From: a bacterium
GTDB lineage: Bacteria > Patescibacteriota > Minisyncoccia > UBA6257 > GWB1-50-10
Length of the DNA: 64,000 nt
Reading direction: 5' to 3'
Assembly (NCBI GenBank): GCA_002686365.1
Contig: NZBZ01000001.1
Location: 58,405-122,404 of the forward strand
This document shows positions 5,710 through 39,825 of the stretch, in pieces; the first letter of the stretch is position 1, and each line of letters opens with the position of its first letter. Below the pieces are notes generated by a model. That model was not told the DNA's origin and did no database searches. It was given only the letters and a program-made list of their open reading frames with translations. The position numbers were made by a program, and so were the translations under genes.

Positions 5710-5811
5710 GGAGTTATTGTATCACTCTTATAAAAAGAAAGAGGAGGCTTGTTGGGCCTCCTTATGGTGGGTTCACGAAGTCGTACTTCGTGAGGTTGTC
5801 AGCTAAATCAG

Positions 5812-6435
5812 CTACGCAGCGTGTCCCTCTTGGGCGAGGTTCTTTCCGTCCCAGCAGATTCGGAGGGAGTTGTGTGCACCTCCATGATCGTAATAGGGGG
5901 TGCTGAGTTTTGTCCCTTGGCGCATTTCGATCACTGTGACGCGAGTGGTTGTTCCGTCCATGTCGACGAAATACTCTGCAATGTCAGTAGTGGGTCGATT
6001 AGGGCGATCTACTCGCGGCTGTACAGGAACTCGTATGAGCACTAGCGCAGTTGAGTTTCGGTCTTCTGGGCTTTCGGGGCCGAGCGTTGGCGGCTCTCCG
6101 TTTCCTGATGGGAGAAGAGATGCTCGCGTGATCTCTATTGTCTCTGGTTCAAAACCAGTTACCCTCAGGCATGCCTCTGTGTCTCCGTGTGGAGATTCCA
6201 TGAGGGGTACGTGAAGCGTGCCATTTGTTCCAACAATGCACATTCCCTTTTGCACGCCTTGGGGTGTTGCTGTAAAGAGTAGCATTCTCACCTTTCGATC
6301 AGTGGCCCGTTCAGTTGTCGAAGATCTTGTGCTTCGTTCCAAGCACGCCAAATCATTATTGTACCAAATTTGGTGCGCTTGGAAAAAGGCGGGAGCTGTG
6401 CTTGGTGCTCCCGCGTGAGTCGTCGTAATGGTCAC
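5812..6435 (-). CDS. hypothetical protein (GC-rich island 1), immediately downstream of DAHP synthase
   Basis: 207-aa ORF with an ORF start 4 nt from the DAHP synthase stop. The composition is GC-rich and no family was recognised. GC-rich DNA inflates chance ORFs, so support is weak. Confidence 0.3.
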   Translation of the reverse strand: MTITTTHAGAPSTAPAFFQAHQIWYNNDLACLERSTRSSTTERATDRKVRMLLFTATPQGVQKGMCIVGTNGTLHVPLMESPHGDTEACLRVTGFEPETIEITRASLLPSGNGEPPTLGPESPEDRNSTALVLIRVPVQPRVDRPNRPTTDIAEYFVDMDGTTTRVTVIEMRQGTKLSTPYYDHGGAHNSLRICWDGKNLAQEGHAA

Positions 6436-6438
6436 GGA

Positions 6439-7635
6439 TTAGAGCTGCGCTGCTCTGTCTCCGCCGCCTTCTTCGAGGGTTCCTTTGCCGACGACCGTTT
6501 TGGCCCTTCCGAAGAGCCGTTCCCGGTCATCAGAGACTCGTTTCTCGTAGATCGGCTCGAGGGCCGCGGAAGGGACGTAGAGATGGGCGATGGTCTCGCG
6601 TAGTTTCCATACTTCCTTTGTGGCTTCGACGAGATTCCCTATCTGTTCAGGGAAGAGTGTTTGGAATCCGTCTGACTTGGCGACGAGCGGATTCGGGTGT
6701 GCCTCGACGAGCAGTACGGAGGCTCCTGCGAGGATGCCCGCGAGCGTCATTGGGTGAACCAGGTCACGGTTTCCTGTGCCGTGAGAGGCGTCGATTGCTG
6801 CGGGCAGATGAGTGAGTTGGTGGTGGAATGCGGCGATGGACCCGAGGTCGAGAGTGTTGCGCGTGTATTGAGAGGGTCCCGTTACTCCGCGCTCGCAGAG
6901 TATGATGTTCTCTTTGCCATTGATCATCATGCGTTCAACCCAGAGGAGGTAGTCCTCAGGATCGAGAGAGTTCCCTCTCTTGTGGATGACTGGCAGGTCG
7001 GTCCCTCGTAGCGCGTTCAGGAGTATGGTGTTGCGGCTGTTCGGCTCGCCGATCTGAAGGCAGTCCACGCCTGCGTCTTCATAGACGTTAATGAGGGAGG
7101 GGTCGAGGATTTCCACCACGACAGGCATTTGGTGTTCGCGTCCGGCTCTGACGATATACCGAAGTCCTTCGATGAGGTCATCGGTGGATTGTGCTCCAAT
7201 CCCTTCCCAGCCGCTGTATGGGCTGGAACGGTACTTGTGCACGCCGCCGCGGAGGACGTGCGCGCCAGCATCCTTCATAATGCGCGCCGCTTCCATCATC
7301 TGACGCTCGCTCTCGATGGAGCAGGGTCCGGCCACGACGACGAGGTCTCCACCGCCGATCGTTACGTTCCCGATTGGGAATGTTGAGTAGAATCGGTCGG
7401 TCCCCGTGCCTTTCTGCGTTGCGCGTTTGTAGGCGCGCGAGATGGAGATGATTTCCTCGACGCCTGGCATCTCGAAGATACGCCCGCGAGGGGCTTGGGA
7501 GACATCTCCGTAGACGCCTATCAGCGTGTGATCCTTGCCGGGCATCTTTCCAGTTTCGAACTCGAGCTCTCTGAGTAGTCTTTCCACGGCGCTGATCTGG
7601 GCCCTGGTTGCTCCTTGTCGCATCTTGACGATCAT
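6439..7635 (-). CDS. 3-deoxy-7-phosphoheptulonate (DAHP) synthase, type I-beta with N-terminal ferredoxin-like regulatory domain
   Basis: The core VVAGPCSIESERQ...VLRGG...KYRSSPYS...ILCERG...IDASHG aligns with Thermotoga/Bacillus-type KDO8P/DAHP synthases. An extra N-terminal domain of about 80 aa is present. Confidence 0.85.
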   Translation of the reverse strand: MIVKMRQGATRAQISAVERLLRELEFETGKMPGKDHTLIGVYGDVSQAPRGRIFEMPGVEEIISISRAYKRATQKGTGTDRFYSTFPIGNVTIGGGDLVVVAGPCSIESERQMMEAARIMKDAGAHVLRGGVHKYRSSPYSGWEGIGAQSTDDLIEGLRYIVRAGREHQMPVVVEILDPSLINVYEDAGVDCLQIGEPNSRNTILLNALRGTDLPVIHKRGNSLDPEDYLLWVERMMINGKENIILCERGVTGPSQYTRNTLDLGSIAAFHHQLTHLPAAIDASHGTGNRDLVHPMTLAGILAGASVLLVEAHPNPLVAKSDGFQTLFPEQIGNLVEATKEVWKLRETIAHLYVPSAALEPIYEKRVSDDRERLFGRAKTVVGKGTLEEGGGDRAAQL

Positions 7636-7828
7636 TCTTCGTCTCCCTCTCTGTCGTCTGACTCTGAATCAGGATGATGAGTGCAGTTGTCTTGGTTGCT
7701 CGGGTGGTCTGCTCGTTCTGGGTCCTGCCTCGGAGTTCTGGGTAGATGAAGAGTCTGCTTCTTGTCATGTCCTATGGGCAGCAACATTCTTGTGCGTGTC
7801 GTCGCCATGATTTTTCCTCTCGCTATTC

Positions 7829-8170
7829 CTATTTGATCTGGAAGGGCTTTCCAATGAAGCCGCAGCCTTGTCCTCGGCAGGAGCGTCTGCTTTGGCCGTC
7901 TCTTGTGGTGATTTCTATCAGTTTTTCTTCACCACATTTTGGGCAGGAGCCCTCTTCCCAGTCTATTCCAAGGTGTATGCTCATGGGATCTGGTCTTGTC
8001 TCGCGGTACTTACTCAGGAAGGGCATGACTTTCTTTCCGTGTCCGTGACGTGTTTGCAGCAGAATCAGGCCGATGTTTGCTGCGTTGTAAGGTGCAATTT
8101 GGCCTGAAAGTTGAGTGTTTTTTACAAAATACCCAATTTTCAAGTCAAAGATTTTGCGTTGTCCGCGCAC
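7829..8170 (-). CDS. hypothetical zinc-ribbon protein
   Basis: The C-terminal CPKCG...C-x2-GC motif looks like a zinc ribbon. The N-terminal part is AT-richer and the start is uncertain. A bidirectional hairpin terminator lies at about 8178-8203. Confidence 0.3.
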   Translation of the reverse strand: MRGQRKIFDLKIGYFVKNTQLSGQIAPYNAANIGLILLQTRHGHGKKVMPFLSKYRETRPDPMSIHLGIDWEEGSCPKCGEEKLIEITTRDGQSRRSCRGQGCGFIGKPFQIK

Positions 8171-9196: not shown

Positions 9197-9532
9197 TTTG
9201 TGTGTATAAAAAATACCCTTTGGTTAGGGTATTTTGCAAGTTTTTGTAATCGTATTAACTCAAAACGCCCTAACCGTGGGATTCTGTAAGGAGGAGGTTA
9301 AGAAGAAGTCCGTTTTGATATAGCACAACTGCTTTTTGCATGTTGAGTATATTTTATTGGTGGTTTGGTGTTTTGTCAACTCCGTTAGAGCTTGTCTTTT
9401 TGCCGAAAGCGAAACGAACTTAGGGACAAGCTCTAACGGGGTCAATTTTTAGGCTGTGGATAAAGAAAATGCCTCCGAGGGGTTGCCTGGAGGCGTGATG
9501 TGAGGATGATGATTCCTCGGTTCGTGGTTGTG

Positions 9533-10042
9533 TCAGTCTGGACAGCGAAGATCGTCTGCGCGATGTGTTTCTGCGACTTCGTCGAGCATTCCGTCGCATT
9601 CTTTCTGTATCCTGCGCGCGGCGCAGCATGCACCTGCTTGCCAGTTTAGAAGCTCGTTGTCGCTTGGCCGTTTTCGACGTACCAGTATGTGTTTGCGGGC
9701 GTTTTGGGCCCATTCCGGCGCGTTTTCCTTCGCGTATCGTTCTGTCCGGCACCATCTTCCCCAATCACTGAGTGATCCATTGGAGAAGACTGCGACATTC
9801 CACATTCGGTCCGTTGGCCCCTCGATGTCGGAGAGTAATTGTACAGCGCGTCCTCTGTTTTCCAGCTCACGGACGAAGTCGACTGCCGCGCGATCCTCTT
9901 CTCGAGCTACGAAGACGACTGGCACGTTTTCGCGCTTACGCTGGTCTGGGGGGTTGGATCTGTATGCAGGGAATTCTTCGCACGGCCAGTCTGGATCGGG
10001 TATGTCTTCGTGGTCGGGATTGTGTTCTGCGGTGGTGTTCAC
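9533..10042 (-). CDS. hypothetical protein, possible TIR/flavodoxin-like fold
   Basis: The stretch VVFVAREEDRAAVDFVRELENRGRAVQLL fits a beta-alpha-beta start like TIR-like domains, which is only suggestive. It lies in a GC-rich island. Confidence 0.25.
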   Translation of the reverse strand: MNTTAEHNPDHEDIPDPDWPCEEFPAYRSNPPDQRKRENVPVVFVAREEDRAAVDFVRELENRGRAVQLLSDIEGPTDRMWNVAVFSNGSLSDWGRWCRTERYAKENAPEWAQNARKHILVRRKRPSDNELLNWQAGACCAARRIQKECDGMLDEVAETHRADDLRCPD

Positions 10043-10074
10043 ACACGGATTCCTTTGTTGGGAGGGGTTGGGGC

Positions 10075-10320
10075 TCAGGAGGCGAAGACGACGTCTTGAG
10101 TTACATAGAAGTCGGTGATGGGATCGAGTGCTGGTTTGCTGACCTTTTTCGGCCTAGGCGGTCTGGCCTCTGGCAGGCCCATTTCACGCCTTAGGGCATG
10201 CCAGCGTTCCCTGAGGCCACGCCTCTTTTTGGGGTCGAGTCCCATCCTCTCAAGCTGTTTTGTGATCCACGCGAGTTCTTCCTTGGGCGTTATCTTGCGC
10301 TCGGCTCCTGTATTAGTCAC
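10075..10320 (-). CDS. small basic hypothetical protein
   Basis: 81-aa Arg/Lys-rich ORF in a GC-rich island. Support is weak. Confidence 0.2.
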   Translation of the reverse strand: MTNTGAERKITPKEELAWITKQLERMGLDPKKRRGLRERWHALRREMGLPEARPPRPKKVSKPALDPITDFYVTQDVVFAS

Positions 10321-10722
10321 TCTCTTCCTCCTGTTCTGGTGACAGACATTTCTTGGTATCTGAACCGCTCGTCTTGTCGCGAGGAAGGTCGGAATGTCTT
10401 TCGCCCTGTGCTCGGGAGAATTGGCAGTGTTCTCCGTTTGGGTTTTGTAAAGAGCGTTGGTTTCTGTCTACGTTCGGCACTTTGTCACGTTGACCAGGTG
10501 CCAAGTTAAACAAAAACGCCTCCCGATTGGGAGGTCTGCAGCATTATTTATTATGTTTAAGCTATATATGCAAAACTCCCAACCGTTTGAAGGTCTTCTT
10601 TTCTATCTTGATGACAATAAGACAGAGAGTTTTTTGCATTTGTTTTATTTTAATATTTTTTGTTTTTTTGTCAATTTTCTGCCTGTGGATAAGAGTTAGG
10701 GACAAGGTTTTTGTGTGTGTGC

Positions 10723-24880: not shown

Positions 24881-24993
24881 GGCCTTTTTACTCCTTTATT
24901 ATACCAAAAGGGGGGGCTTGAAACAAGGGAAATTTGGGCCTGAAAAGACGAAAAAAAGACCGGCGTTTCGGATTACGTCGGCCTTGCGTTGAG

Positions 24994-26556
24994 CTAGTCG
25001 GTTGCTTGTTCCCCTTGGGAAGGGTGCAGGGCAGCCTTGATCGCTGCTTCTTCTGCCTCCTCCAGAAGACTGGTGAGTCTCTGAGAGCATGCTATTGCGA
25101 TGCGGAGTCGACCAACCCTCTCTTCCGGACTTTCGGCTTCAGCGTCCTGCCAGCGCGACTCGATGCTTCGAAGTAATTCGAGTGCTGGATCGTCAGACGT
25201 TTGTTGTTCGGTCGTCGGCTCATCAGATGGGGCGTCTGCAGGCGGCGCAGTCTCTTGGTCGAAGGGTCCGATGATCCAAATCTGCGGTCCAGTTGGATCT
25301 ACTCGGACTTGCCTTACGACTCCTCGTGCTTCGAGGTCTCCTCCCCTTCTTTTGGCTGTCGGCTCAGTGTATTTCGTGAGTGCTTCGATGGCTTCCCATG
25401 GAATGGACTGTAGGCGCAGCCATCCGTCTTTGAGGCCAACTTGGACAATCGTGTCCTTCTGAAGAAGAAGATCGTGGATCTCTGCTAGCGTGAATCCACT
25501 GCCTCTCAGATGACTCTCTTGGACGTGACCGTGAAAGTCGGCGAGCGTACCGTATTCTGTCTTGTGACGGGGACAGATGATTGCTGGCTCACTGGTTGGG
25601 GCTGGGTCTTGGTCGTTACCTCCTGCGTGGTCTGCGTCGTGTTCGGGCGCGTCATCGTCGGGGCTGATGACGGTGATTGTGTCGCCGTGGTCTTCGATCC
25701 TTCCATCTCCTGCGAGTGAGGAAAGGTAGGCCTCTTCCGCGTTGTTGTCTTCAGCTGTATCTCCTAGTGCGTCCTGCAGCCAAGTAGAGATTGTTCGGAT
25801 CGCAGCTTCACGAGAGATTTGTCCGTTGCTGTCAGCAAGATCAAGAAGGACTCTGTGGGCGTCTTCGAGGGTCAGGCTGCTGCTGTCGTCGGTTTCGACT
25901 TCATCTGCGGCCGCTGATTCGCTTCTGGGTCCTCTTGCGGTAGTCGTCCCGGCTCCTTGGGTGGATCCTTGTGTCTCGGATGCCTCACGTCTTCTTCGTG
26001 TGGGTCTTCCTGTCTCGTGATGTCCGTGCGAAGCCTGCGTAGTCGTCCCACCACTTTCAGGTGGTTCAGTGATGATCCAGACAGGTTCTTCCTCTCGAAT
26101 GGCTCCTGTGTTGATCAGGGCGGTTTCTATGCCTAGCCCGTTCGAGCCTGGCATGGCCTCCAGGAAACTCGCGGGGCGAATTTCCATCTGACGCGTCACG
26201 TCTCCAGCATTCACCTGGTTAGCATTGTTCCAGAGTAGCACGTGCGCGCGTCTCTGCGCCTCTGCGGTCTGCACGGCACTTGCTTCGTCTCTTGCCATTA
26301 GTTCGCTCCTTCCCGCTGTTTCGGCGGGAGGCTGTTCCTTACGTGATGTTGGGAGTGCAAGACGGGGGCTTGGCTCGAGATCTTCAGTCTGTACAGTTAT
26401 CTCTTGCCTTGATGCTCTTCGTCGGTGGATCGCGAGTTTTCGCTCTCTGGGCCTAGTGATGGAAAACTCTCCGGGCCCATCGATGCTCATCAGGTGGTTT
26501 TGGATGAGTTGGAGCGTTGCATCTCCTGCTTCTTCTTCAGAAATCTCTAGTTGCAT
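24994..26556 (-). CDS. hypothetical acidic protein (GC-rich island 4)
   Basis: 520 aa, Asp/Glu/Thr-rich, with a CPRHK...HGHVQESH Cys/His cluster. No family was recognised. Confidence 0.35.
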   Translation of the reverse strand: MQLEISEEEAGDATLQLIQNHLMSIDGPGEFSITRPRERKLAIHRRRASRQEITVQTEDLEPSPRLALPTSRKEQPPAETAGRSELMARDEASAVQTAEAQRRAHVLLWNNANQVNAGDVTRQMEIRPASFLEAMPGSNGLGIETALINTGAIREEEPVWIITEPPESGGTTTQASHGHHETGRPTRRRREASETQGSTQGAGTTTARGPRSESAAADEVETDDSSSLTLEDAHRVLLDLADSNGQISREAAIRTISTWLQDALGDTAEDNNAEEAYLSSLAGDGRIEDHGDTITVISPDDDAPEHDADHAGGNDQDPAPTSEPAIICPRHKTEYGTLADFHGHVQESHLRGSGFTLAEIHDLLLQKDTIVQVGLKDGWLRLQSIPWEAIEALTKYTEPTAKRRGGDLEARGVVRQVRVDPTGPQIWIIGPFDQETAPPADAPSDEPTTEQQTSDDPALELLRSIESRWQDAEAESPEERVGRLRIAIACSQRLTSLLEEAEEAAIKAALHPSQGEQATD

Positions 26557-26752
26557 GAGAATTCCAACAGGAGATCCTGTGAATGTCCGAACATCACTGG
26601 TCTCTGTGGCGCTAGCTGCGGCACGGTTCCAGAGGATGCGATGTATTCTTATGGGCGGCTTGGATACTTTCCATCCTTTTCTGGTGTCGACGAGGACGTA
26701 TCTCTTCCGCAGCTCACTGATAGCGTCTTGAGCGTAGCTATCATCTGCTCAC

Positions 26753-26774
26753 GTATGCAAATAAATTTGCATAC
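26753..26774. promoter_or_regulatory. perfect 22-bp palindrome (candidate operator)
   Basis: GTATGCAAAT-AA-ATTTGCATAC at the boundary of GC-rich island 4 and tRNA-Leu. Confidence 0.35.
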
Positions 26775-26789
26775 TTCCCGCGCTAGCAA

Positions 26790-26822
26790 AAATCCCGACT
26801 CTTATAAGAATCGGGATTTCTC
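26790..26822 (-). terminator. intrinsic terminator downstream of tRNA-Leu
   Basis: AAATCCCGA/TCGGGATTT stem, followed by a T-run on the minus strand. Confidence 0.6.
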
Positions 26823-26828
26823 TAGTAG

Positions 26829-26913
26829 TGCGCGGGAGAGGACTTGAACCTCCACGTCCCTAGGGGACAATAGCCCCTCAAGCTATAGCGTCTACCAATT
26901 CCGCCACCCGCGC
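26829..26913 (-). tRNA. tRNA-Leu (anticodon GAG)
   Basis: Cloverleaf has acceptor GCGCGGG/CCCGCGC, a D-arm GGCGGAATTGGTAGACGC typical of tRNA-Leu, anticodon loop TTGAGGG, a long variable arm and a T-arm GGTTCAAGTCC. Confidence 0.85.
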
Positions 26914-27576
26914 ATTATTTTCTTTGTCTATTTTAAGTATTCTTTGGGTTTTAGCAACTTTTCTTAAGAGACAAGGAATTTTTTCTTTATAATATATTCT
27001 TTTTATAAGTTTTTTGCTTTCAGTTTTTGCAAACTCTAACATCCATGCTCTCGTTGCGACTTTTACACCTCCCTTAATGGAGCTTTGTTTTTCTATCTTT
27101 TTTTGTAGCCACTTTAGAAATTCTGGGCTCGCTGATATGAATCTGATGTAAAACATATAACTGCTTCTCCACCTTTTGTCCCAGTACGAGTATATGCACC
27201 CATCTCCGTCAAAACACCCTCGTAAAAAATCGAAAAAATAATTATCAGGTATTTTTAGCTCTCCCAGTGTTTTCGATTTATTCGGAGTCATTCCGATGCT
27301 TACGAGCCAGCTATAGAATAATACGTTACTTATTTGGGTGCGGTGGTAGATATTTTTATTGTTATGACTACTTATTTTTCTGCTAATTTTTAGCCCTTCT
27401 ATTCCTAGACATTTTTGGAATGTTTTTATTAGCTCTTTGTCTTTTGAGGTAAAATCGATGTGACGCTTGTCTTTTGAAAGACAGCCATCGGTTGCTATGA
27501 GTCCAACTGCATATGCAAGTTCTGCTGACCAGTTAGTAGAAATTTTTTTCTTGGGCTTGGGTCCCCTTTTCCCCAT
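26878..27576 (-). CDS. LAGLIDADG homing endonuclease (free-standing, double-motif)
   Basis: Two LAGLIDADG motifs: LAYAVGLIATDGCL and FLRGCFDGDGCI. The last 12 codons overlap the 5' half of tRNA-Leu. Confidence 0.8.
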   Translation of the reverse strand: MGKRGPKPKKKISTNWSAELAYAVGLIATDGCLSKDKRHIDFTSKDKELIKTFQKCLGIEGLKISRKISSHNNKNIYHRTQISNVLFYSWLVSIGMTPNKSKTLGELKIPDNYFFDFLRGCFDGDGCIYSYWDKRWRSSYMFYIRFISASPEFLKWLQKKIEKQSSIKGGVKVATRAWMLEFAKTESKKLIKRIYYKEKIPCLLRKVAKTQRILKIDKENNARVAELVDAIA

Positions 27577-27671
27577 ATTTTAATTTTACCTTTTATTTTA
27601 AGAGTTTTCTATACTAAAAAGAAAGATCGTCAAATCAAAAATCCTCATGCTATGCAGCGTGAGGATTTTTG

Positions 27672-27998
27672 TTAAAAGCTAATTCCGAGTTTTTCCTGTA
27701 TTTTTTTAGGAGAGAGTTTGCGAATATAGTATAGTTTTGATTTGCGCACCCTCTTGGGTTTTCCAAGAATATCTATCTTATCAACCATTGGACTCATGAG
27801 TGGATATACTTTCTCTACTCCAACCTCCTGAATGATTCCTCGCACAGTAAATGTAGCGCCTGCTTCTTTGCCGTGCTTTCGCGCAATAATAATTCCTGTG
27901 AAGGGACTTTTTCTTTTTTTGTCTCCTTCTTTTACAATTTCCCAGACTTTTACCTTTATGCCGGGGCGTAATTCTTTTATTGTTTTTTCATCTAGCAT
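27672..27998 (-). CDS. rplS: 50S ribosomal protein L19
   Basis: ...SPFTGIIIARKHGKEAGATFTVRGIIQEVGVEKVYPLMSP, canonical L19. Confidence 0.9.
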   Translation of the reverse strand: MLDEKTIKELRPGIKVKVWEIVKEGDKKRKSPFTGIIIARKHGKEAGATFTVRGIIQEVGVEKVYPLMSPMVDKIDILGKPKRVRKSKLYYIRKLSPKKIQEKLGISF

Positions 27999-28094
27999 GT
28001 TTTTAGAAATTAGTTCTGCCTGTTAGCAGGCAAAGACTAGGAAATAGTAAGTATAATTTGCTGAAAAGTCAATCCATCACATAGCCTTGTGAGA

Positions 28095-28820
28095 CTATGT
28101 GATGGACAAGTCTTTTAAAGTTTTTTGAAGGTCTTCAGGAAGCTCTGATTCTACTTTTATTCTTCTCTTATTTGACAGAGAGAATTCGAGAGATTCAGCA
28201 TGCAGAAAGTGTCGTTTTAATCCAAATGTTTCTCGTTTTCCTGCGTAGAGCTTGTCTCCGACTACTGGGTGTCCAATACTTGCGAGGTGCACACGGATTT
28301 GATGAGTGCGTCCTGTTTTTGGTAAGACTTTGAGGAGTGTTAGAGAGGTTGTTTCTGTTTTTAGATTTTTGATTGGCTCAATTTTTGTTACTGCCTTTTT
28401 TACCATCTTCATTTTTCTTGCTCGGGTACTTCTTTTTATACTGCCGGACATGAGTCCGATTGGTTTATCAATAATCTGCTTTTTTTCTATTTTTCCGTGC
28501 GCAAGGGCTTTGTAAGTTTTTTTCACCTTGTGTTCCTGAAGAAGTTTTTTGAAGTACTCAAAGAAGGTTTGCGTTTTCGCAATAAGAAGGATGCCGGAAG
28601 TTTCTTTATCTAAACGATGAACAATGCCCGGCCGTTCTTTAGGGCTGTCCCCAACAGTTTTTGTTTCTGTAAATTTCTTTTTTATCCAGTCTGCGAGTGT
28701 TTCTTCCTGCTTTTTTGTTTTTTGAGGGATTCCATGCATAAGCAGGCCAGCAGGCTTGTGGATAATTGCAAAATCTTTTTCTTGATATAAAATCTTTATG
28801 TTTTCGGTTAATATTGACAT
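28095..28820 (-). CDS. RluA-family pseudouridine synthase
   Basis: Catalytic motif HRLDKETSGILLIAKT. Confidence 0.85.
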   Translation of the reverse strand: MSILTENIKILYQEKDFAIIHKPAGLLMHGIPQKTKKQEETLADWIKKKFTETKTVGDSPKERPGIVHRLDKETSGILLIAKTQTFFEYFKKLLQEHKVKKTYKALAHGKIEKKQIIDKPIGLMSGSIKRSTRARKMKMVKKAVTKIEPIKNLKTETTSLTLLKVLPKTGRTHQIRVHLASIGHPVVGDKLYAGKRETFGLKRHFLHAESLEFSLSNKRRIKVESELPEDLQKTLKDLSIT

Positions 28821-29324: not shown

Positions 29325-29416
29325 GCTAGGATATAAGACTTAGGACATAGGATTTAGAAAAAAGAAAATGCGCCGCAGGGATTGCCTGAGGCGCTTTTGG
29401 TTGCGGTCTGAGTTCA

Positions 29417-30565
29417 TCAGACAGTCTTGTTGAATTCGTGATCAGGAGATGCTGTCAGACGGAGGCTTGCTCTCAACCTCCTTTTTGGGTCTGCCTCTCT
29501 CCAGCTTCGTATCGCTCTCTCCGCTGCCTGCAGGGCTTTGCCGAACGTGTTCTCTGTGAGCTCGAGGTTGATGGTCACAGTGACGTTCGCCGTACCAGGC
29601 TCTGTGTAGCCAACTTCGACTACGAGCTCGCTGCCTACATTGGCAAGCTCAGAGACGCTCAAGATCGAATCTCTGAGCAGATCCTTCAATGTCCTAATTG
29701 CCCTGTCGAACGCTGCCACGCGTTCTGTTGTGGCTGTTGCGACTTGGAAGGCGAGTGTGGAGCGCCCCGCAAGCGGACTCGTGATTCGAAGCCCTTGAGC
29801 GAACTCGTGGACAGATTGGTTTCTCGCCCAGGCGATCGCGAGGATGCACGCGATCTCCTCGTTGTCTTTGTCGCACTTTTCTTGATCCGCGATGATCTGG
29901 TGGTGTTCAGCGAGGCGCGGGACAGGAAATCCTTGCCTGGTCGCAGTTCGTATTGCGCCCAGCCAAACCGAGCGGTCGAGTCCTTGTAGCGTGGGAAAGC
30001 TCAGAATGTGGTCGAAGAAGATCCCGACGGCCTCTTCACCATCTTCGGTGTTGCGCCAACGCTCGGTTACGAGCTCGAGAAGTCGCGTTCTTGTCTTGGG
30101 GAGCGCCACGACTCTCGTTGTTCGGTTTGGTCGTTCTGAGTCAGAACATCCGCTCTCTGAGGCTTGTTGGATCGCAACCTCCCTGGTTCCAGGAGCGTCA
30201 AAGAGGAGTTGGAGGAGGTATCTTGTGAGAGGCTCCCACGCGATGTCCTCTGCCGTCTCCGTTGCTTCGTTGTCCAGACGGAAGGGCGTTCCTTCTCCGC
30301 GGAAGGGCATTTCTCCGTCTTCCTCGCGTAGATGAGGGTAGATGGCCCTCTCTAGAGAAGCCTGGATGAACCATTCGAGGAGTTGGAGGGCGTCGGCATC
30401 TTTTGCCTCACGAATGGTCTCGCGGAGCAGTTCGAGGAGCTCTTTTTTCCTGTCGTCTGGGCGGATTCTTTGGAGCCACGCGTGTGAGACCAATCCGCCT
30501 TCTTTTCGCACTCGATCCAGAAATAGGACGTAGGGCGTACCTTCGGGCCTACCTTCGCTCGACAT
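29417..30565 (-). CDS. hypothetical protein (GC-rich island 5)
   Basis: 382-aa ORF, GC-rich, no recognised family. A nested perfect palindrome lies upstream at 30698-30756. Confidence 0.35.
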   Translation of the reverse strand: MSSEGRPEGTPYVLFLDRVRKEGGLVSHAWLQRIRPDDRKKELLELLRETIREAKDADALQLLEWFIQASLERAIYPHLREEDGEMPFRGEGTPFRLDNEATETAEDIAWEPLTRYLLQLLFDAPGTREVAIQQASESGCSDSERPNRTTRVVALPKTRTRLLELVTERWRNTEDGEEAVGIFFDHILSFPTLQGLDRSVWLGAIRTATRQGFPVPRLAEHHQIIADQEKCDKDNEEIACILAIAWARNQSVHEFAQGLRITSPLAGRSTLAFQVATATTERVAAFDRAIRTLKDLLRDSILSVSELANVGSELVVEVGYTEPGTANVTVTINLELTENTFGKALQAAERAIRSWREADPKRRLRASLRLTASPDHEFNKTV

Positions 30566-30697
30566 GACGTATTCCCTTCCGGCCGCAGCCGAAAATGCTT
30601 CTTTCCGCAGAAAGAAGTTCCAGAACTACATGTCCGCAAACATGCTCTGGGGGGTTGTGTAGGGGTTTTCACCCCGGCTTTTGCTGGGGTTAATGTA

Positions 30698-30756
30698 CGT
30701 GTTTTTTTGTTTTTTGTCCATAGGACAATTCTATGGAATTGTCCTAAAAAAACACG
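30698..30756. promoter_or_regulatory. nested perfect palindrome upstream of island-5 gene
   Basis: CGTGTTTTTTT...GGACAATTC-tatg-GAATTGTCC...AAAAAAACACG. Confidence 0.35.
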
Positions 30757-31488: not shown

Positions 31489-31560
31489 GGGCACATAGTT
31501 CAGTGGTAGAACGCTATCCTGATAAGATAGAGGTCCCAGGTTCGATCCCTGGTGTGCCCA
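31489..31560 (+). tRNA. tRNA-Ile (anticodon GAT)
   Basis: Acceptor GGGCACA/TGTGCCC, anticodon loop CTGATAA, T-arm CCAGGTTCGATCCCTGG. Confidence 0.85.
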
Positions 31561-31564
31561 CAGG

Positions 31565-31641
31565 GGGCCTGTAGCTCAGTTGGCTAGAGCGCCTCGTTTG
31601 CAACGAGGAGGTCGTCGGTTCGATTCCGATCAGGTCCACCA
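31565..31641 (+). tRNA. tRNA-Ala (anticodon TGC), CCA encoded
   Basis: Acceptor GGGCCTG with a G3-U70 pair, the Ala identity element. Anticodon loop TTTGCAA, T-arm GTCGGTTCGATTCCGAT, then ACCA. Confidence 0.85.
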
Positions 31642-37078: not shown

Positions 37079-37911
37079 GTTGCAATCTTAATATATTTAT
37101 ATATTTTGATATATTTTGGCACTAATTAGGGTTTTCCACAGAAAATTTGTGTTCTTTGTTTTTTTTGTATATGCTTGTACTCGGCGCTGTGTAGCACGTT
37201 TGCCACAAGGCTGTAAAAAGCCTGTGACAGCGCGTGTTATCCGGAATAACATGGTTGACAGAGAAGGTGCTTCTCGGAGCAGTCTTCTTTCGTCGAATAA
37301 GGAGAACGCATAACCTATGCGTGGCTGCGTCTCCTGAACGTAACGATCCCGTGAGTAAGCCCGTGCTTTGCCTTTTGTGCCAGTGGACTCAATAGGTGGT
37401 GACTACTACCTAAAGTCCTAATCAGAGTTGATAGGGGCACAGCATAAAGAGAAAAGCGCTATCGGGCATAAAACCGGGATGGGAAAGCTCGTAAGACTTC
37501 CCGAAACGGGGAACAACATCGCTATTCGCGTGTGGGGGCCGGAACCTAGTTCTTGCCCTCACAAAACGCTTTATATAAACACTTTAGGTGTTTTTTTGTT
37601 TTTTAGGCGTTAAATGCGTCAATGTGTCAAATTTTAGTGTTATTACTTTTGGACGACCGTAAAAGTGATGACATTAAAATGGAAAGATAAGAAAAAATCA
37701 TGAATTACAATTTTGTGGTGGTTATCCACACGTTCTTGAGATTTTGAGTGAGTATTGTATGGTTTTTACAGGTTCCAGCCATAGGTTCTCCCACCAAGGA
37801 GTTCCCTAATGGTGAGGGAACGTTCAAGCTAGGGAGGATTTTCGAGACTGGATTCACTTGTCTCGTTTCGAGACCAAGAGAGCTCTCAGCTCCTGAATAG
37901 GAGTTCTGGAC

Positions 37912-38895
37912 ATGACTTTCCAAACAGACCGTCCTCCGACGCAGACGTTTGACCATCGCCGCAAGTTCCGCAAGTTCCGCCGAGTGGCACCCTTCCTCGT
38001 CGCGATCGCAGCCGCAGTAGCGCTCGGCGTCCCGATGATGACGACGGACGCGTTGACCGACAGTCAACAGGCGACGGTAGCCCTGACCGCGGACCAAATC
38101 GGTGCGACGCTCAACGACGTGGCGACCCCGCGCGACACCGCGCAGATGTGCGTTTTCGCCGCGGGGACCGATGCGACTGACGCGAGCCCGGCCATAGTGC
38201 AAACGCTGACGGCCGAGCAGACTCGCCGAACCATGGACCTTGATGCGGTTGCCGACGCGACGCGCGGATCGCCCGAGACCGGCTCTTCGACGATGACCGT
38301 AGCCATGGTCACGCGGAGTACCTTCCCCGAGATGACGGATGGTGCACCCGCCGCTGTGGGCACGGTCGCTCTCGTTGACGAATCGGCCTCAGCTGAAACC
38401 ACCACTTCGGCATTCGTCGTGGAAATCGCGCAGTGTGCTGCCGGAATTGTCGAATCGACGACGGCGCGCGCAGAATCAACCCAGGAGATCACCGTTCAGG
38501 GCGTCTACTCAGAGCAGCACGGCATCGTCACGATGACCACGCAAATCGCCGTCCAGCCCGCTGAGCAGGCCGAGGTCGTCGAGACGTCAGCCGAAGTCGT
38601 TGGTACCATCGTCGCGATGACCATGGAGACCGCCGGTCAGAGCGCCGAACGTCAAGTCGAGATCGCGGCTATCACCGCTCAACATGGCATCGAGCAGATG
38701 GCGGCCGCGGAGTTCCCGGGACAGTACTGTGGTGAAGCAATCGCGATGGCGGCAGACAGCGGCCAGTGCGATGTACAGCGGATCGAGGCGGACGCGTTCT
38801 CACGGCACCCCCAAGTGGCGCTCGCAGTCACGCAGCACCGAAGCGCGGCGGTTGCGACGATGGCGGCGTCGGTCGACGCTCATCCGCGGGCCTGA
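37912..38895 (+). CDS. hypothetical Ala/Thr/Glu-rich secreted or membrane-anchored protein (GC-rich island 6)
   Basis: A basic N-terminus then a hydrophobic segment (FLVAIAAAVALGV). The rest is low-complexity and acidic. GC is about 62%. Confidence 0.35.
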   Translation: MTFQTDRPPTQTFDHRRKFRKFRRVAPFLVAIAAAVALGVPMMTTDALTDSQQATVALTADQIGATLNDVATPRDTAQMCVFAAGTDATDASPAIVQTLTAEQTRRTMDLDAVADATRGSPETGSSTMTVAMVTRSTFPEMTDGAPAAVGTVALVDESASAETTTSAFVVEIAQCAAGIVESTTARAESTQEITVQGVYSEQHGIVTMTTQIAVQPAEQAEVVETSAEVVGTIVAMTMETAGQSAERQVEIAAITAQHGIEQMAAAEFPGQYCGEAIAMAADSGQCDVQRIEADAFSRHPQVALAVTQHRSAAVATMAASVDAHPRA

Positions 38896-39021
38896 TCCTC
38901 GAGAGACCAGGCAGGATCCTCCACATTGGCTCTTCGGAGTCATCACACCAAGGTCTTCCTACAGACCACACGAGGCGACTACATGTTGCCTCTCTTTTTT
39001 TATATGCGCGCAAGCGCTTTT

Positions 39022-39052
39022 TTATTTCGAGATATCGAGATTTCGATATTTT
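39022..39052. repeat. tandem TCGAGATN octamers (x3), right side of island 6
   Basis: TTCGAGATATCGAGATTTCGATAT, the same motif family as at 36118. Confidence 0.45.
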
Positions 39053-39057
39053 GAACT

Positions 39058-39825
39058 TTACCAAGGTGTAAGGTCTAGAGGACCTCGTTCAGTTATAGCA
39101 ATAGTTTTTTCAAAATGTGCAGTAAGAGAGTTATCTTTTACTACAAAGCTTCCATCTTCTTTTGCAAACACTTGTCCAGAGCCCATTGCTACCATTGGCT
39201 CAATTGCAATTACCATTCCTGATACGAGCTCCTCACCACTCCCCTTTTCTCCATTGTTTCGTACAGTAGGGGGTTCGTGCACATCAAATCCCACTCCGTG
39301 TCCTGTGAGTTTTTCTACAATTTCAAATCCCTGCTTTTTTACAGTAGTTTCTATAATATTGCCTATATCACCTGTGTAGTTACCTTGCTTGCATACCTTA
39401 ATAGCCCTTTTTAAGGCCTCATTTGTGGTTTTTAAGAGCTTTTTTGCCTCTTTCGATGTCTTTCCCACCCCTACAGTAATGGCTGCGTCTGTGAAGCGAT
39501 TTTTGTATTTTACTCCAATATCAATCTTCAAAATATCCCCATCTTTTAATTCCACATCATATGGAATGCCGTGGACTACAGTTTCATTTACTGATGCGCA
39601 GATTGCAGCTGGATACGGCGCTGAAGTCGGCTTTGGCTTATAGCCTAAAAACGCAGGCTCTGCTCCCTGCGCTTCAATTGTTTTCTTTGCGATTTTCTCA
39701 AGGTCAAGGAGTGAGACTCCTGGACGCACATGTTTTTTTACCTCCTTTAGAGTGCGGACTAGAATTTTTCCAGAGGCTTTTAAGAGCTGAATATCATCTT
39801 TTGATTTTAGGCCTGTTTCATTCAT
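39058..39825 (-). CDS. map: methionine aminopeptidase type I
   Basis: Pita-bread fold motifs: VVHGIP...DIG...HGVGFDVHEPP. Confidence 0.9.
   Translation of the reverse strand: MNETGLKSKDDIQLLKASGKILVRTLKEVKKHVRPGVSLLDLEKIAKKTIEAQGAEPAFLGYKPKPTSAPYPAAICASVNETVVHGIPYDVELKDGDILKIDIGVKYKNRFTDAAITVGVGKTSKEAKKLLKTTNEALKRAIKVCKQGNYTGDIGNIIETTVKKQGFEIVEKLTGHGVGFDVHEPPTVRNNGEKGSGEELVSGMVIAIEPMVAMGSGQVFAKEDGSFVVKDNSLTAHFEKTIAITERGPLDLTPW

Follow-up and report, generated by a model that had tools for sequence, protein, structure and literature searches.

Homing endonuclease genes (HEGs) are thought to persist in self-splicing introns, in inteins or in phage genomes. Group I introns occur in the anticodon loops of bacterial transfer RNA (tRNA) genes, for example the cyanobacterial tRNA-Leu(UAA), and integrase-driven islands and prophages, kilobases long and moved by tyrosine or serine recombinases, insert into tRNA genes and carry a replacement for the tRNA segment concerned, usually its 3' end. 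In the mORFs of fungal mitochondria (atp6 of Allomyces macrogynus; atp6, atp9, cox2 and nad3 of Glomus), an inserted endonuclease open reading frame (ORF) comes with a replacement C-terminus for the host gene, whose native terminus persists as a remnant (PMC3630166). The abstract on phage T4 SegB describes a free-standing GIY-YIG HEG in a tRNA gene cluster, with a site built on the T-psi-C stem-loop, which drives the inheritance of itself and of the adjacent tRNA DNA, an activity shown experimentally (PMC2330249). A 2024 survey found LAGLIDADG genes in insertions of the ribosomal RNA (rRNA) genes of the candidate phyla radiation (CPR, or Patescibacteria), its main text making no mention of tRNA (PMC11270868). 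Here we describe a free-standing LAGLIDADG HEG in a 64,000-nucleotide (nt) stretch of a Patescibacteria contig (NZBZ01000001.1, positions 58,405 to 122,404; hereafter the window), where it lies between rplS, the gene of ribosomal protein L19, and a tRNA-Leu(GAG) gene. Full-text literature searches for such an arrangement of a HEG and tRNA-Leu returned no description of it. Comparison with related loci suggests that the family to which this gene belongs entered the tRNA gene itself.

The ORF runs into the tRNA gene, as a first-pass annotation made from the window's sequence had proposed. ARAGORN and Rfam RF00005 both call the tRNA (the latter at 26829..26913, with 50.8 bits against a gathering score of 29), and the overlap can be read directly: residue 222 of the 232-amino-acid ORF is aligned exactly with tRNA nt 1, and the 36 nt shared (tRNA nt 1-36) read GCG CGG GTG GCG GAA TTG GTA GAC GCT ATA GCT TGA, that is, 11 sense codons (ARVAELVDAIA, residues 222-232) and a stop. 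The 11 residues listed in the annotation are right, whereas the 12 codons of its title are one too many. The TGA occupies nt 34-36 of the tRNA. With the anticodon put at nt 35 by ARAGORN, these are U33-G34-A35 by the standard numbering, so the stop falls in the anticodon loop as annotated. The further claims of a native-like base composition and of a gene outside any intron or intein also hold: the GC content of the HEG region (about 0.36-0.37) matches that of the neighbouring rplS and rluA genes, a sensitive Rfam scan of 26500..28100 found no intron RNA (group I or group II) around the gene even at E<=1, the tRNA is contiguous according to ARAGORN, and no enclosing ORF is present that could be an intein host. 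Together with hairpins that bracket the HEG and the tRNA as a unit, this makes the HEG a free-standing gene.

The protein matches Pfam LAGLIDADG_3 (PF14528; E=1e-14) in two stretches and is not of the GIY-YIG type. Both motifs, LAYAVGLIATDG and FLRGCFDGDG, are intact, as first annotated, and each has its catalytic acidic residue. The AlphaFold2 model (predicted local distance difference test, pLDDT, 92; predicted template modelling score, pTM, 0.88) shows two alpha-beta-beta-alpha-beta-beta-alpha repeats, the pseudo-dimeric fold of a single-chain enzyme, and Foldseek matches it to I-Tsp061I, I-AniI, I-SceI and I-DmoI at a probability of 1.00. The closest solved structure is that of I-Tsp061I, an enzyme of archaeal rRNA introns (2dch; hmmsearch E=3e-8, Foldseek E=6e-12, about 20% identity). 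Intein and intron endonucleases match the fold too, and so do the non-nuclease relatives WhiA and bI3 maturase, the similarity to these last two being generic. D30 and D125 are invariant in 199/199 family sequences and the median ratio of nonsynonymous to synonymous substitution rates (dN/dS) is 0.09, so the family is under purifying selection and has been kept as an active-looking nuclease; the loss of catalytic acidic residues that marks a domesticated scaffold has not taken place. The last 20 or so residues, the tRNA-encoded tail included, are modelled with a pLDDT of 64-68. At the other end, the N-terminus MGKRGPKPK (residues 1-9, 27550-27576 on the minus strand) is conserved in most family members; residues 1-10 are unstructured in the model (mean pLDDT 74) and form a basic, AT-hook-like tail, which might add minor-groove DNA contacts.

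More than 3000 homologous proteins, 215-240 amino acids long and all from Patescibacteria, were retrieved, the best matches being 50-61% identical. From at least 360 loci confirmed by tblastn we took the best 80, from 80 different genomes, a sample biased by this choice toward intact genes; with further loci, the family set amounts to 84 loci from different Patescibacteria genomes. A tRNA-Leu gene called by ARAGORN lies directly downstream of the HEG, on the same strand, in 77 of the 80 (76 with a GAG anticodon and one with AAG), while of the other three, one lies at a contig end, one has its tRNA cut short by a contig end and one has a tRNA masked by Ns. Directly upstream, again on the same strand, rplS is found in 73 of 76 assessable HEG-carrying loci, usually preceded by an RluA gene; what lies downstream of the tRNA is variable. 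Every assessable member of the 84 loci sits between rplS and tRNA-Leu(GAG). The family occupies the same spot in hundreds of CPR bacteria, and only one site, the rplS/tRNA-Leu(GAG) junction. The juxtaposition of HEG and tRNA is more than chance. That it could be an artefact of the window (an ORF extended spuriously, a tRNA called in error or a gene borne by an intron or intein) has nothing in its favour beyond the prior that compact genomes have short overlaps; two independent tRNA callers agree, an identical protein in the same arrangement is present on other contigs, the arrangement recurs throughout the assessable loci, and neither intron RNA nor an enclosing ORF is to be found, which leaves this explanation with a negligible probability.

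The arrangement had been annotated as unusual, and what stands of this is the existence of a large family at a single site; the overlap itself is nothing special. When each ORF was walked from its start codon to its stop, 31 of 77 intact family ORFs ended inside the tRNA, in all three frames, and the other 46 ended 0-34 nt before it. The in-tRNA stops fall at nt 36 (TGA in 10 loci including the window, and one TAA where the anticodon is AAG), at nt 15-16 (TAA, 12 loci), at nt 21-23 (TAG, three loci), at nt 10 (TGA, two loci) and at three further positions in one locus each. In many homologs the C-terminal tail is consequently a translation of the tRNA 5' half, in one or another of the three frames (AQVAELVYAYA, PRWRNRYTQ, PDGGIGLRSGLRGRAS). 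Since the conserved protein core ends near residue 215, these tails lie beyond it.

Several observations on individual loci may be recorded here. The sole family locus with an AAG anticodon (L025:4673-4757) has its ORF stop at the same place as the window, U33-A34-A35 giving TAA; one allele without HEG (L106) likewise has AAG. The only clear pseudogene among the 80 genome loci (L078:4001-4240) has a premature stop after 79 codons, and a tRNA-Leu(GAG) still follows it. In about 20 HEG-carrying loci, the window not among them, the motif TTGACAAA lies at a fixed distance, 7-8 nt upstream of tRNA nt 1 (among others L024, L068, L034, L042, L038, L029, L045, L057, L021, L072, L074 and L077), and is conserved whatever the frame, encoding L-T-K in some loci and holding a TGA stop in others; it was rejected as a -35 box of a tRNA promoter, because the spacing would put the -10 box inside the tRNA, where there is no match. 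Some database source names look wrong: one family member is labelled 'Intein-containing protein' and CPR L19 proteins are labelled Nanoarchaeota or uncultured archaeon (P0011, P0123, P0222). The loci whose metagenome-assembled genomes carry the titles Deltaproteobacteria, Burkholderiales or Gammaproteobacteria are probably mis-binned CPR contigs.

The comparison with genomes lacking the HEG, which the first-pass annotation had put forward as a way of finding the insertion point, yielded empty alleles, among them those of the window's nearest relatives. An L19-anchored metagenome scan recovered 27 rplS-tRNA-Leu(GAG) loci without HEG and three with it. In the HEG-less alleles the tRNA directly follows rplS: its nt 1 is only 1-18 nt from the rplS stop in about 17 of the 27 (1 nt in L093, L097 and L103), and in two (L094, L101) the rplS ORF appears to end inside the tRNA. 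It is therefore the locus, rather than the HEG, that is characterized by an ORF ending at the 5' edge of this tRNA or within it, and this proximity implies excision of the tRNA from the 3' end of the rplS messenger RNA (mRNA). The L19 protein itself often has a long C-terminal extension rich in Glu and Lys that fills the gap between rplS and the tRNA. Loci with and without HEG are interleaved on the L19 tree, the nearest neighbour being a HEG carrier for 18 of the 27 empty loci at L19 identities of up to 89%. The window's closest relatives, obtained in a second L19 search (L195-L207; 72-75% L19 identity), have no HEG and share the window's synteny (rluA, rplS, tRNA-Leu and gyrB, with tRNA-Ile and tRNA-Ala nearby), their gap between rplS and the tRNA measuring 94-199 nt. 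The HEG is an optional element at one homologous site, with empty alleles in relatives, and no footprint of HEG loss is present in 28 empty-allele spacers. One allele with a 1.95-kb gap (L092) was considered as a degenerate HEG locus and rejected, as the gap holds an unrelated gene of 481 amino acids. A different partial duplication of the 5' part of this tRNA is seen in another HEG-less locus (L158:1586-1790). There, a unit of about 102 nt, made of tRNA-Leu nt 1-17 (GCGGACGTGGTGGAATT) and, after it, a hairpin rich in GC (CCCGCTCTTCGCGAAGAGCGGGA), occurs twice in tandem shortly before the intact tRNA; it may be a small hairpin element or the scar of a repair event.

Where the element went in is indicated by a piece of tRNA on the far side of the HEG. 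The rplS-HEG spacer contains the motif TTrGTAGACGCTAnnnnCTTGAG, with at most two mismatches, in 45 of the 84 loci, and this motif corresponds to tRNA-Leu(GAG) from the D-loop through the anticodon loop. With a profile of the tRNA 5' half, the median score of the rplS-HEG spacers is 5.4 bits and 14 of 70 reach at least 10 bits, against a maximum of 2.8 in shuffled sequences. All told, a fragment is present in roughly 70% of filled alleles (about 59 of 84 loci), always with the intact tRNA downstream. A profile built from the remnants themselves matched 0 of 28 empty-allele spacers and recovered some 14 held-out filled loci; since the remnant occurs only with the HEG, the fragment comes with the gene, and the architecture is 5' fragment, HEG, intact tRNA. 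The fragment covers nt 1-31/36 in L032, L033 and L070 and nt 1-20 in L014, and its homology always ends at about nt 36-40, where the anticodon loop has its 3' edge. Its distance from the rplS stop is 0-5 nt in L032 and L014; in L032 it begins at the stop codon's last base, the position at which the intact tRNA begins in empty alleles. The fragment lacks the whole 3' half and usually also nt 1-13, and ARAGORN calls only the downstream copy. The ORF is thus flanked by a partial duplication of its presumed target: the displaced segment has no function as a tRNA, and the cassette directly adjoins the functional gene. In alignments with real tRNAs, most fragments have one extra nucleotide between GACGC and TTGAGG, which suggests that the main clade has a common origin. 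No displaced 3' fragment was found downstream of the intact tRNA or in the spacers; apparent hits were rejected because they are T-arms of neighbouring tRNA-Val genes.

The displaced fragment appears to have found a use. The family consensus upstream of the HEG is a T-run, AATTGGTAGACGCTATnnCCTTGAGGTnATATAAT, six nucleotides and ATG, and the TAGACG of the remnant's D-arm lies 17 nt upstream of TATAAT, frequently with a TG extension (TAGACG-17-(TG)TATAAT-N6-ATG). The end of the -10 box is exactly 6 nt from the start codon in 41 of 72 loci, and Shine-Dalgarno-like sequences are confined to 11 of 84, a layout that implies a leaderless mRNA. At about 2 bits, conservation of the tRNA-derived blocks, among them the anticodon-loop block within the promoter spacer, exceeds that of the -10 box, and it persists across gene pairs with saturated synonymous sites (dS>1). 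The blocks are therefore likely under a constraint beyond promoter function, which would suggest that the enzyme binds the remnant site. About 12 loci have a second configuration, with the start codon 2-5 nt past the fragment's TTGAG. The window's own site, TAGAAA-17-TAAAAT, is in the same register as the promoter of the family and takes the position held in relatives by the tRNA-derived remnant. With hairpins before this promoter-like site and after the tRNA, HEG and tRNA look like one transcription unit and are probably co-transcribed; a terminator-like hairpin and T-run like the one after rplS in the window is also present in many filled alleles. The first-pass annotation had offered homing into a tRNA gene and a co-transcribed unit as alternatives, and both gain support once the related loci are brought in. 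Six loci (L008, L017, L052, L059, L015, L018) have neither terminator, remnant nor promoter, and there the L19 coding tail nearly reaches the HEG start, so the HEG is probably expressed from the rplS operon.

The tRNAs linked to a HEG differ from those without one. GTAGACG is found in the D-arm of the functional tRNA in only 4 of 81 HEG-carrying loci (5%) but in 11 of 27 HEG-less ones (41%; p=3e-5, Fisher's exact test), and pairing by nearest L19 neighbour gives an 11:0 split, neither test being fully free of phylogenetic non-independence. The block is kept in the remnant of 44 of the 81 loci, and 43 of these 44 remnants have it where the neighbouring tRNA does not. The fragment's conservation, two conserved blocks around some four variable positions, resembles a LAGLIDADG site. 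In the window, the tRNA-Leu differs from that of the closest HEG-less relatives only in nt 10-44 (D-arm and anticodon stem) and at a few variable-arm positions, with an identical acceptor stem and at most one change in the T-arm, while the tRNA-Ile and tRNA-Ala of the same genomes, taken as controls, follow the opposite pattern, their acceptor and T stems varying and their D-arms being kept. We infer from these patterns that the region from the D-arm to the anticodon loop is the probable target.

A simpler history would have the HEG target, or merely land in, the spacer just upstream of tRNA nt 1, the tRNA-like block being a secondary local duplication retained because it made a good promoter; no target inside the tRNA could then be inferred. 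The window's lineage is in keeping with this, as its rplS-HEG spacer (a terminator and about 64 nt) is similar in length to the rplS-tRNA spacer of its empty relatives (a terminator and about 68 nt), so that the insert would equal just the ORF; moreover, some 30% of filled loci have no remnant and the tRNA 5' half does not co-vary with the HEG. Insertion into the spacer is nevertheless improbable: 1) the remnant is confined to loci with a HEG; 2) in L032 and L014 it occupies the native position of the tRNA; 3) it always ends at the same tRNA position; 4) its anticodon-loop block is conserved within the promoter spacer, where a promoter needs no conservation; and 5) HEG-linked tRNAs avoid the D-arm sequence that the remnant retains.

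The best explanation for these observations, to which we assign a probability of roughly 70%, is that a HEG family entered tRNA-Leu(GAG) carrying a replacement 5' part, and that the displaced fragment was reused as a promoter. The element would have entered the tRNA gene itself, not the spacer, leaving a unit made of the old 5' fragment, the HEG and the replacement 5' part fused to the resident 3' part. The displaced fragment (up to nt 1-40) would have been recycled as the HEG promoter, with the D-arm TAGACG as -35 box and TATAAT 6 nt before the ATG giving a leaderless mRNA. HEG and tRNA would be made as one transcript from which ribonuclease P (RNase P) releases the tRNA. As the ORF abuts tRNA nt 1, translation runs on to the first in-frame stop, which in the window is the UGA made up of U33 and anticodon bases one and two; the overlap results from compaction and does not serve as a coding device. 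The enzyme would cleave HEG-less tRNA-Leu(GAG) genes within about nt 17-40, its substrates being empty alleles such as L195 and L205 for the window and a GGTAGACGYACTACCTTGAGGTGG-type tRNA gene for other members; HEG-linked tRNAs would be resistant variants and the element may still be mobile.

Not everything fits. The window's own spacer contains no remnant by either the tRNA profile or the remnant-specific profile, and neither do those of the 30% of HEG-carrying loci mentioned above; for the window, whose own fragment has eroded, the insertion into the tRNA rests on homology with its relatives (an alignment by eye of GATTTGACGATC...TTTTTAG with the remnant was dropped, being unsupported by the profiles). 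The window's tRNA also keeps GGTAGACGC, the proposed sensitive sequence, as one of the four exceptions among 81 loci, and since the intact tRNA of a filled allele retains most of the proposed target, self-immunity is only partly explained. HEG divergence correlates weakly with that of the tRNA 5' half (r=0.13) and no less with the 3' half (r=0.27), giving no co-variation with the part supposedly carried in; the Mantel test likewise lends no support to a foreign origin of the replacement 5' part, for all that the window's tRNA is a mosaic relative to those of its HEG-less relatives. We make no claim of a family-wide acceleration of tRNA nt 10-44, as the stems are saturated even among loci with L19 at least 90% identical. 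As to mobility, the Mantel correlation of HEG divergence is 0.59 with L19 and 0.66 with RluA, against 0.72 for host gene against host gene. In no pair of loci does the similarity of the HEGs greatly exceed that of their flanks, the compared loci show no instance of recent transfer, and the HEG is present in 8/8 contigs carrying the window's exact L19, so that recent horizontal movement is not in evidence. These points, with the sampling bias and the phylogenetic non-independence noted earlier, weigh against the insertion and mobility proposed here. Presence of the HEG is patchy even though its divergence tracks host genes; descent looks mostly vertical, or else transfer is confined to close relatives. 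Two candidates for mobility were discarded: 1) a replacement of the HEG between L021 and L051 (L19 99% and HEG 65% identical), whose flanks are only 78-82% identical at the DNA level and thus indicate faster HEG evolution; 2) a phage vector, as viral contigs hold only relatives of 36% identity or less, none of them adjoining a tRNA.

Such vertical descent is what one would expect had an ancient single insertion been fixed and domesticated, the HEG-less genomes being losses and the protein having acquired a host role, such as binding DNA to regulate the rplS/tRNA-Leu locus or acting as a nuclease in some other process. The co-divergence of the HEG with L19 and RluA, nearly as strong as that between the host genes, the low dN/dS, the single pseudogene among 80 copies, the lack of visible recent transfer and the resemblance of the fold to the domesticated LAGLIDADG scaffolds WhiA and bI3 maturase all agree with this. 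WhiA and maturases have, however, lost their catalytic aspartates, which in this family are without exception retained. Carriers and non-carriers interleave among close relatives, the window's nearest ones having no HEG; empty alleles are devoid of remnant or footprint, with an rplS stop often 1-12 nt from the tRNA, a configuration hard to obtain by deletion; and domestication gives no role to the avoidance signal in the tRNA D-arm. On balance we regard it as unlikely.

The insertion into tRNA-Leu(GAG) favoured above could be taken further, to a long-lived gene drive that is hard to remove, although we consider this extension rather doubtful. By capturing the transcription of what is, in the window, apparently the cell's tRNA-Leu(GAG) gene, the element would ensure that silencing the HEG promoter silences the tRNA. 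The fossil fragment in the promoter would act as an operator, bound but uncut owing to its +1 nt change in spacing, and would bring about autorepression, as is known of I-TevI. The enzyme would police the locus, cutting incoming or reverted sensitive tRNA-Leu alleles in CPR cells that naturally import DNA, and would drive rapid compensatory evolution of the tRNA D-arm and anticodon stem. A stop inside the tRNA, combined with RNase P cleavage, would leave a non-stop mRNA, coupling enzyme dosage to tRNA processing and to rescue by transfer-messenger RNA (tmRNA).

The features of the locus are collected in Table 1. A second promoter-like site (TTGCTA-16-TAAAAT, 26930..26957, minus strand) lies within the last 25 codons of the HEG ORF, embedded in the conserved coding region RK..K..KI..ID, and has a -10 box that ends 16 nt ahead of tRNA nt 1; this could be the tRNA's own promoter, by a consensus match of which six were found against 3.2 expected by chance. 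Further afield, the window has GC-rich islands (0.54-0.60 against a window mean of 0.435) at 24901-26600, 29401-30700, 5801-7900, 9401-10500 and 37801-39100. The first two flank the rluA-rplS-HEG-tRNA block, have long ORFs on both strands (520 and 382 amino acids on the minus strand) without a match in Pfam, and are missing from the closest relatives, in which gyrB and the tRNA are about 700 nt apart; the others carry ordinary genes (DAHP synthase, a LeuA domain). The islands may be acquired DNA or encode hypervariable proteins. Finally, tRNA-Ile(GAT) and tRNA-Ala(TGC) lie 3 nt apart at 31489-31641 (plus strand), a pair typical of the 16S-23S spacer and also present in the close relatives L195 and L205, yet Rfam finds no rRNA in the 64-kb window.

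Table 1. Features at and around the rplS/tRNA-Leu(GAG) junction (window coordinates)
Feature	Coordinates	Strand	Evidence
rluA-type pseudouridine synthase gene	28095..28820	-	Pfam PseudoU_synth_2, E=2e-33; homolog upstream of rplS in most of 80 related loci
rplS (ribosomal protein L19), left flank of insertion site	27672..27998	-	Pfam Ribosomal_L19, E=3e-27
Terminator-like hairpin and U-run after rplS	27637..27665	-	Folding energy -11.9 kcal/mol, z=-2.85, then UUUUU
Promoter-like site TAGAAA-17-TAAAAT	27583..27611	-	9/12 consensus matches; -10 box ends 6 nt before HEG ATG
Double-motif LAGLIDADG homing endonuclease gene, 232 amino acids, ATG start	26878..27576	-	Pfam PF14528, homologs, AlphaFold2, Foldseek
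LAGLIDADG motif 1, LAYAVGLIATDG, residues 20-31, catalytic D30	27484..27519	-	D30 invariant 199/199
LAGLIDADG motif 2, FLRGCFDGDG, residues 117-126, catalytic D125	27199..27228	-	D125 invariant 199/199
ORF/tRNA overlap, codons 222-232 and TGA = tRNA nt 1-36	26878..26913	-	Direct reading
tRNA-Leu(GAG), intact class II tRNA	26828..26913	-	ARAGORN; Rfam, 50.8 bits
Strong terminator-like hairpin and U-run directly 3' of tRNA	26783..26825	-	Folding energy -24.9 kcal/mol, z=-7.8; 0/200 shuffles fold as well

If the proposed history is true, it adds a third way for a HEG to be harmless in a cellular chromosome: it carries a replacement for what it disrupts, and tRNA processing removes the rest. The family would then be a predicted set of natural meganucleases, with thousands of variants and a target in a defined stretch of 20-25 bp of tRNA-Leu(GAG), a possible example of co-evolution between a tRNA gene and a nuclease, and a second class of LAGLIDADG elements in CPR bacteria beside the well-known rRNA insertions. 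For annotation, it means that hundreds of odd C-terminal tails of database proteins are translated tRNA.

Among known systems, the mORFs have the closest architecture. In both cases a free-standing ORF (LAGLIDADG here, LAGLIDADG or GIY-YIG in mORFs) lies in an essential gene with a copy of the displaced segment, the functional gene is a hybrid, the displaced segment is an adjacent dead fragment, and the ORF can share the host gene's phase or extend into that gene (PMC3630166). The two differ in that the target here is a tRNA gene on a Patescibacteria chromosome rather than a protein-coding gene in a fungal mitochondrion, that the 5' part is duplicated instead of the 3' part, as in a mirror image, and that the dead fragment appears to have been recruited as a promoter; the foreign origin of the replacement segment, demonstrated for the fungal cases (PMC3630166), is unsupported here by the Mantel test. 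SegB is the closest functional analogue, and the likeness is functional only: a free-standing HEG lies by tRNA genes and has its site, here a proposed one, on a conserved tRNA element. It is a GIY-YIG enzyme of a phage genome, whereas ours is a LAGLIDADG enzyme of a cellular genome with a predicted activity, and the SegB abstract mentions neither a partial tRNA duplication nor an overlap of ORF and tRNA (PMC2330249). The enzymes of CPR rRNA insertions, from the same phylum, and I-Tsp061I belong to the same superfamily and likewise target conserved structural-RNA genes; they sit in intervening sequences of rRNA that are removed from the RNA, while the present family is free-standing, outside the mature tRNA, and involves no splicing. 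Like the group I introns of tRNA genes, it is associated with the anticodon-loop region of a tRNA-Leu, where the remnant ends, but there is no ribozyme, the tRNA is uninterrupted, and the 5' part is duplicated in place of splicing. With integrase-driven islands, finally, it has in common a tRNA gene as target and the supply of a copy of the displaced segment, by which an intact tRNA persists; it differs from them in being a unit of about 0.75 kb that has no recombinase and duplicates the 5' part of the tRNA.

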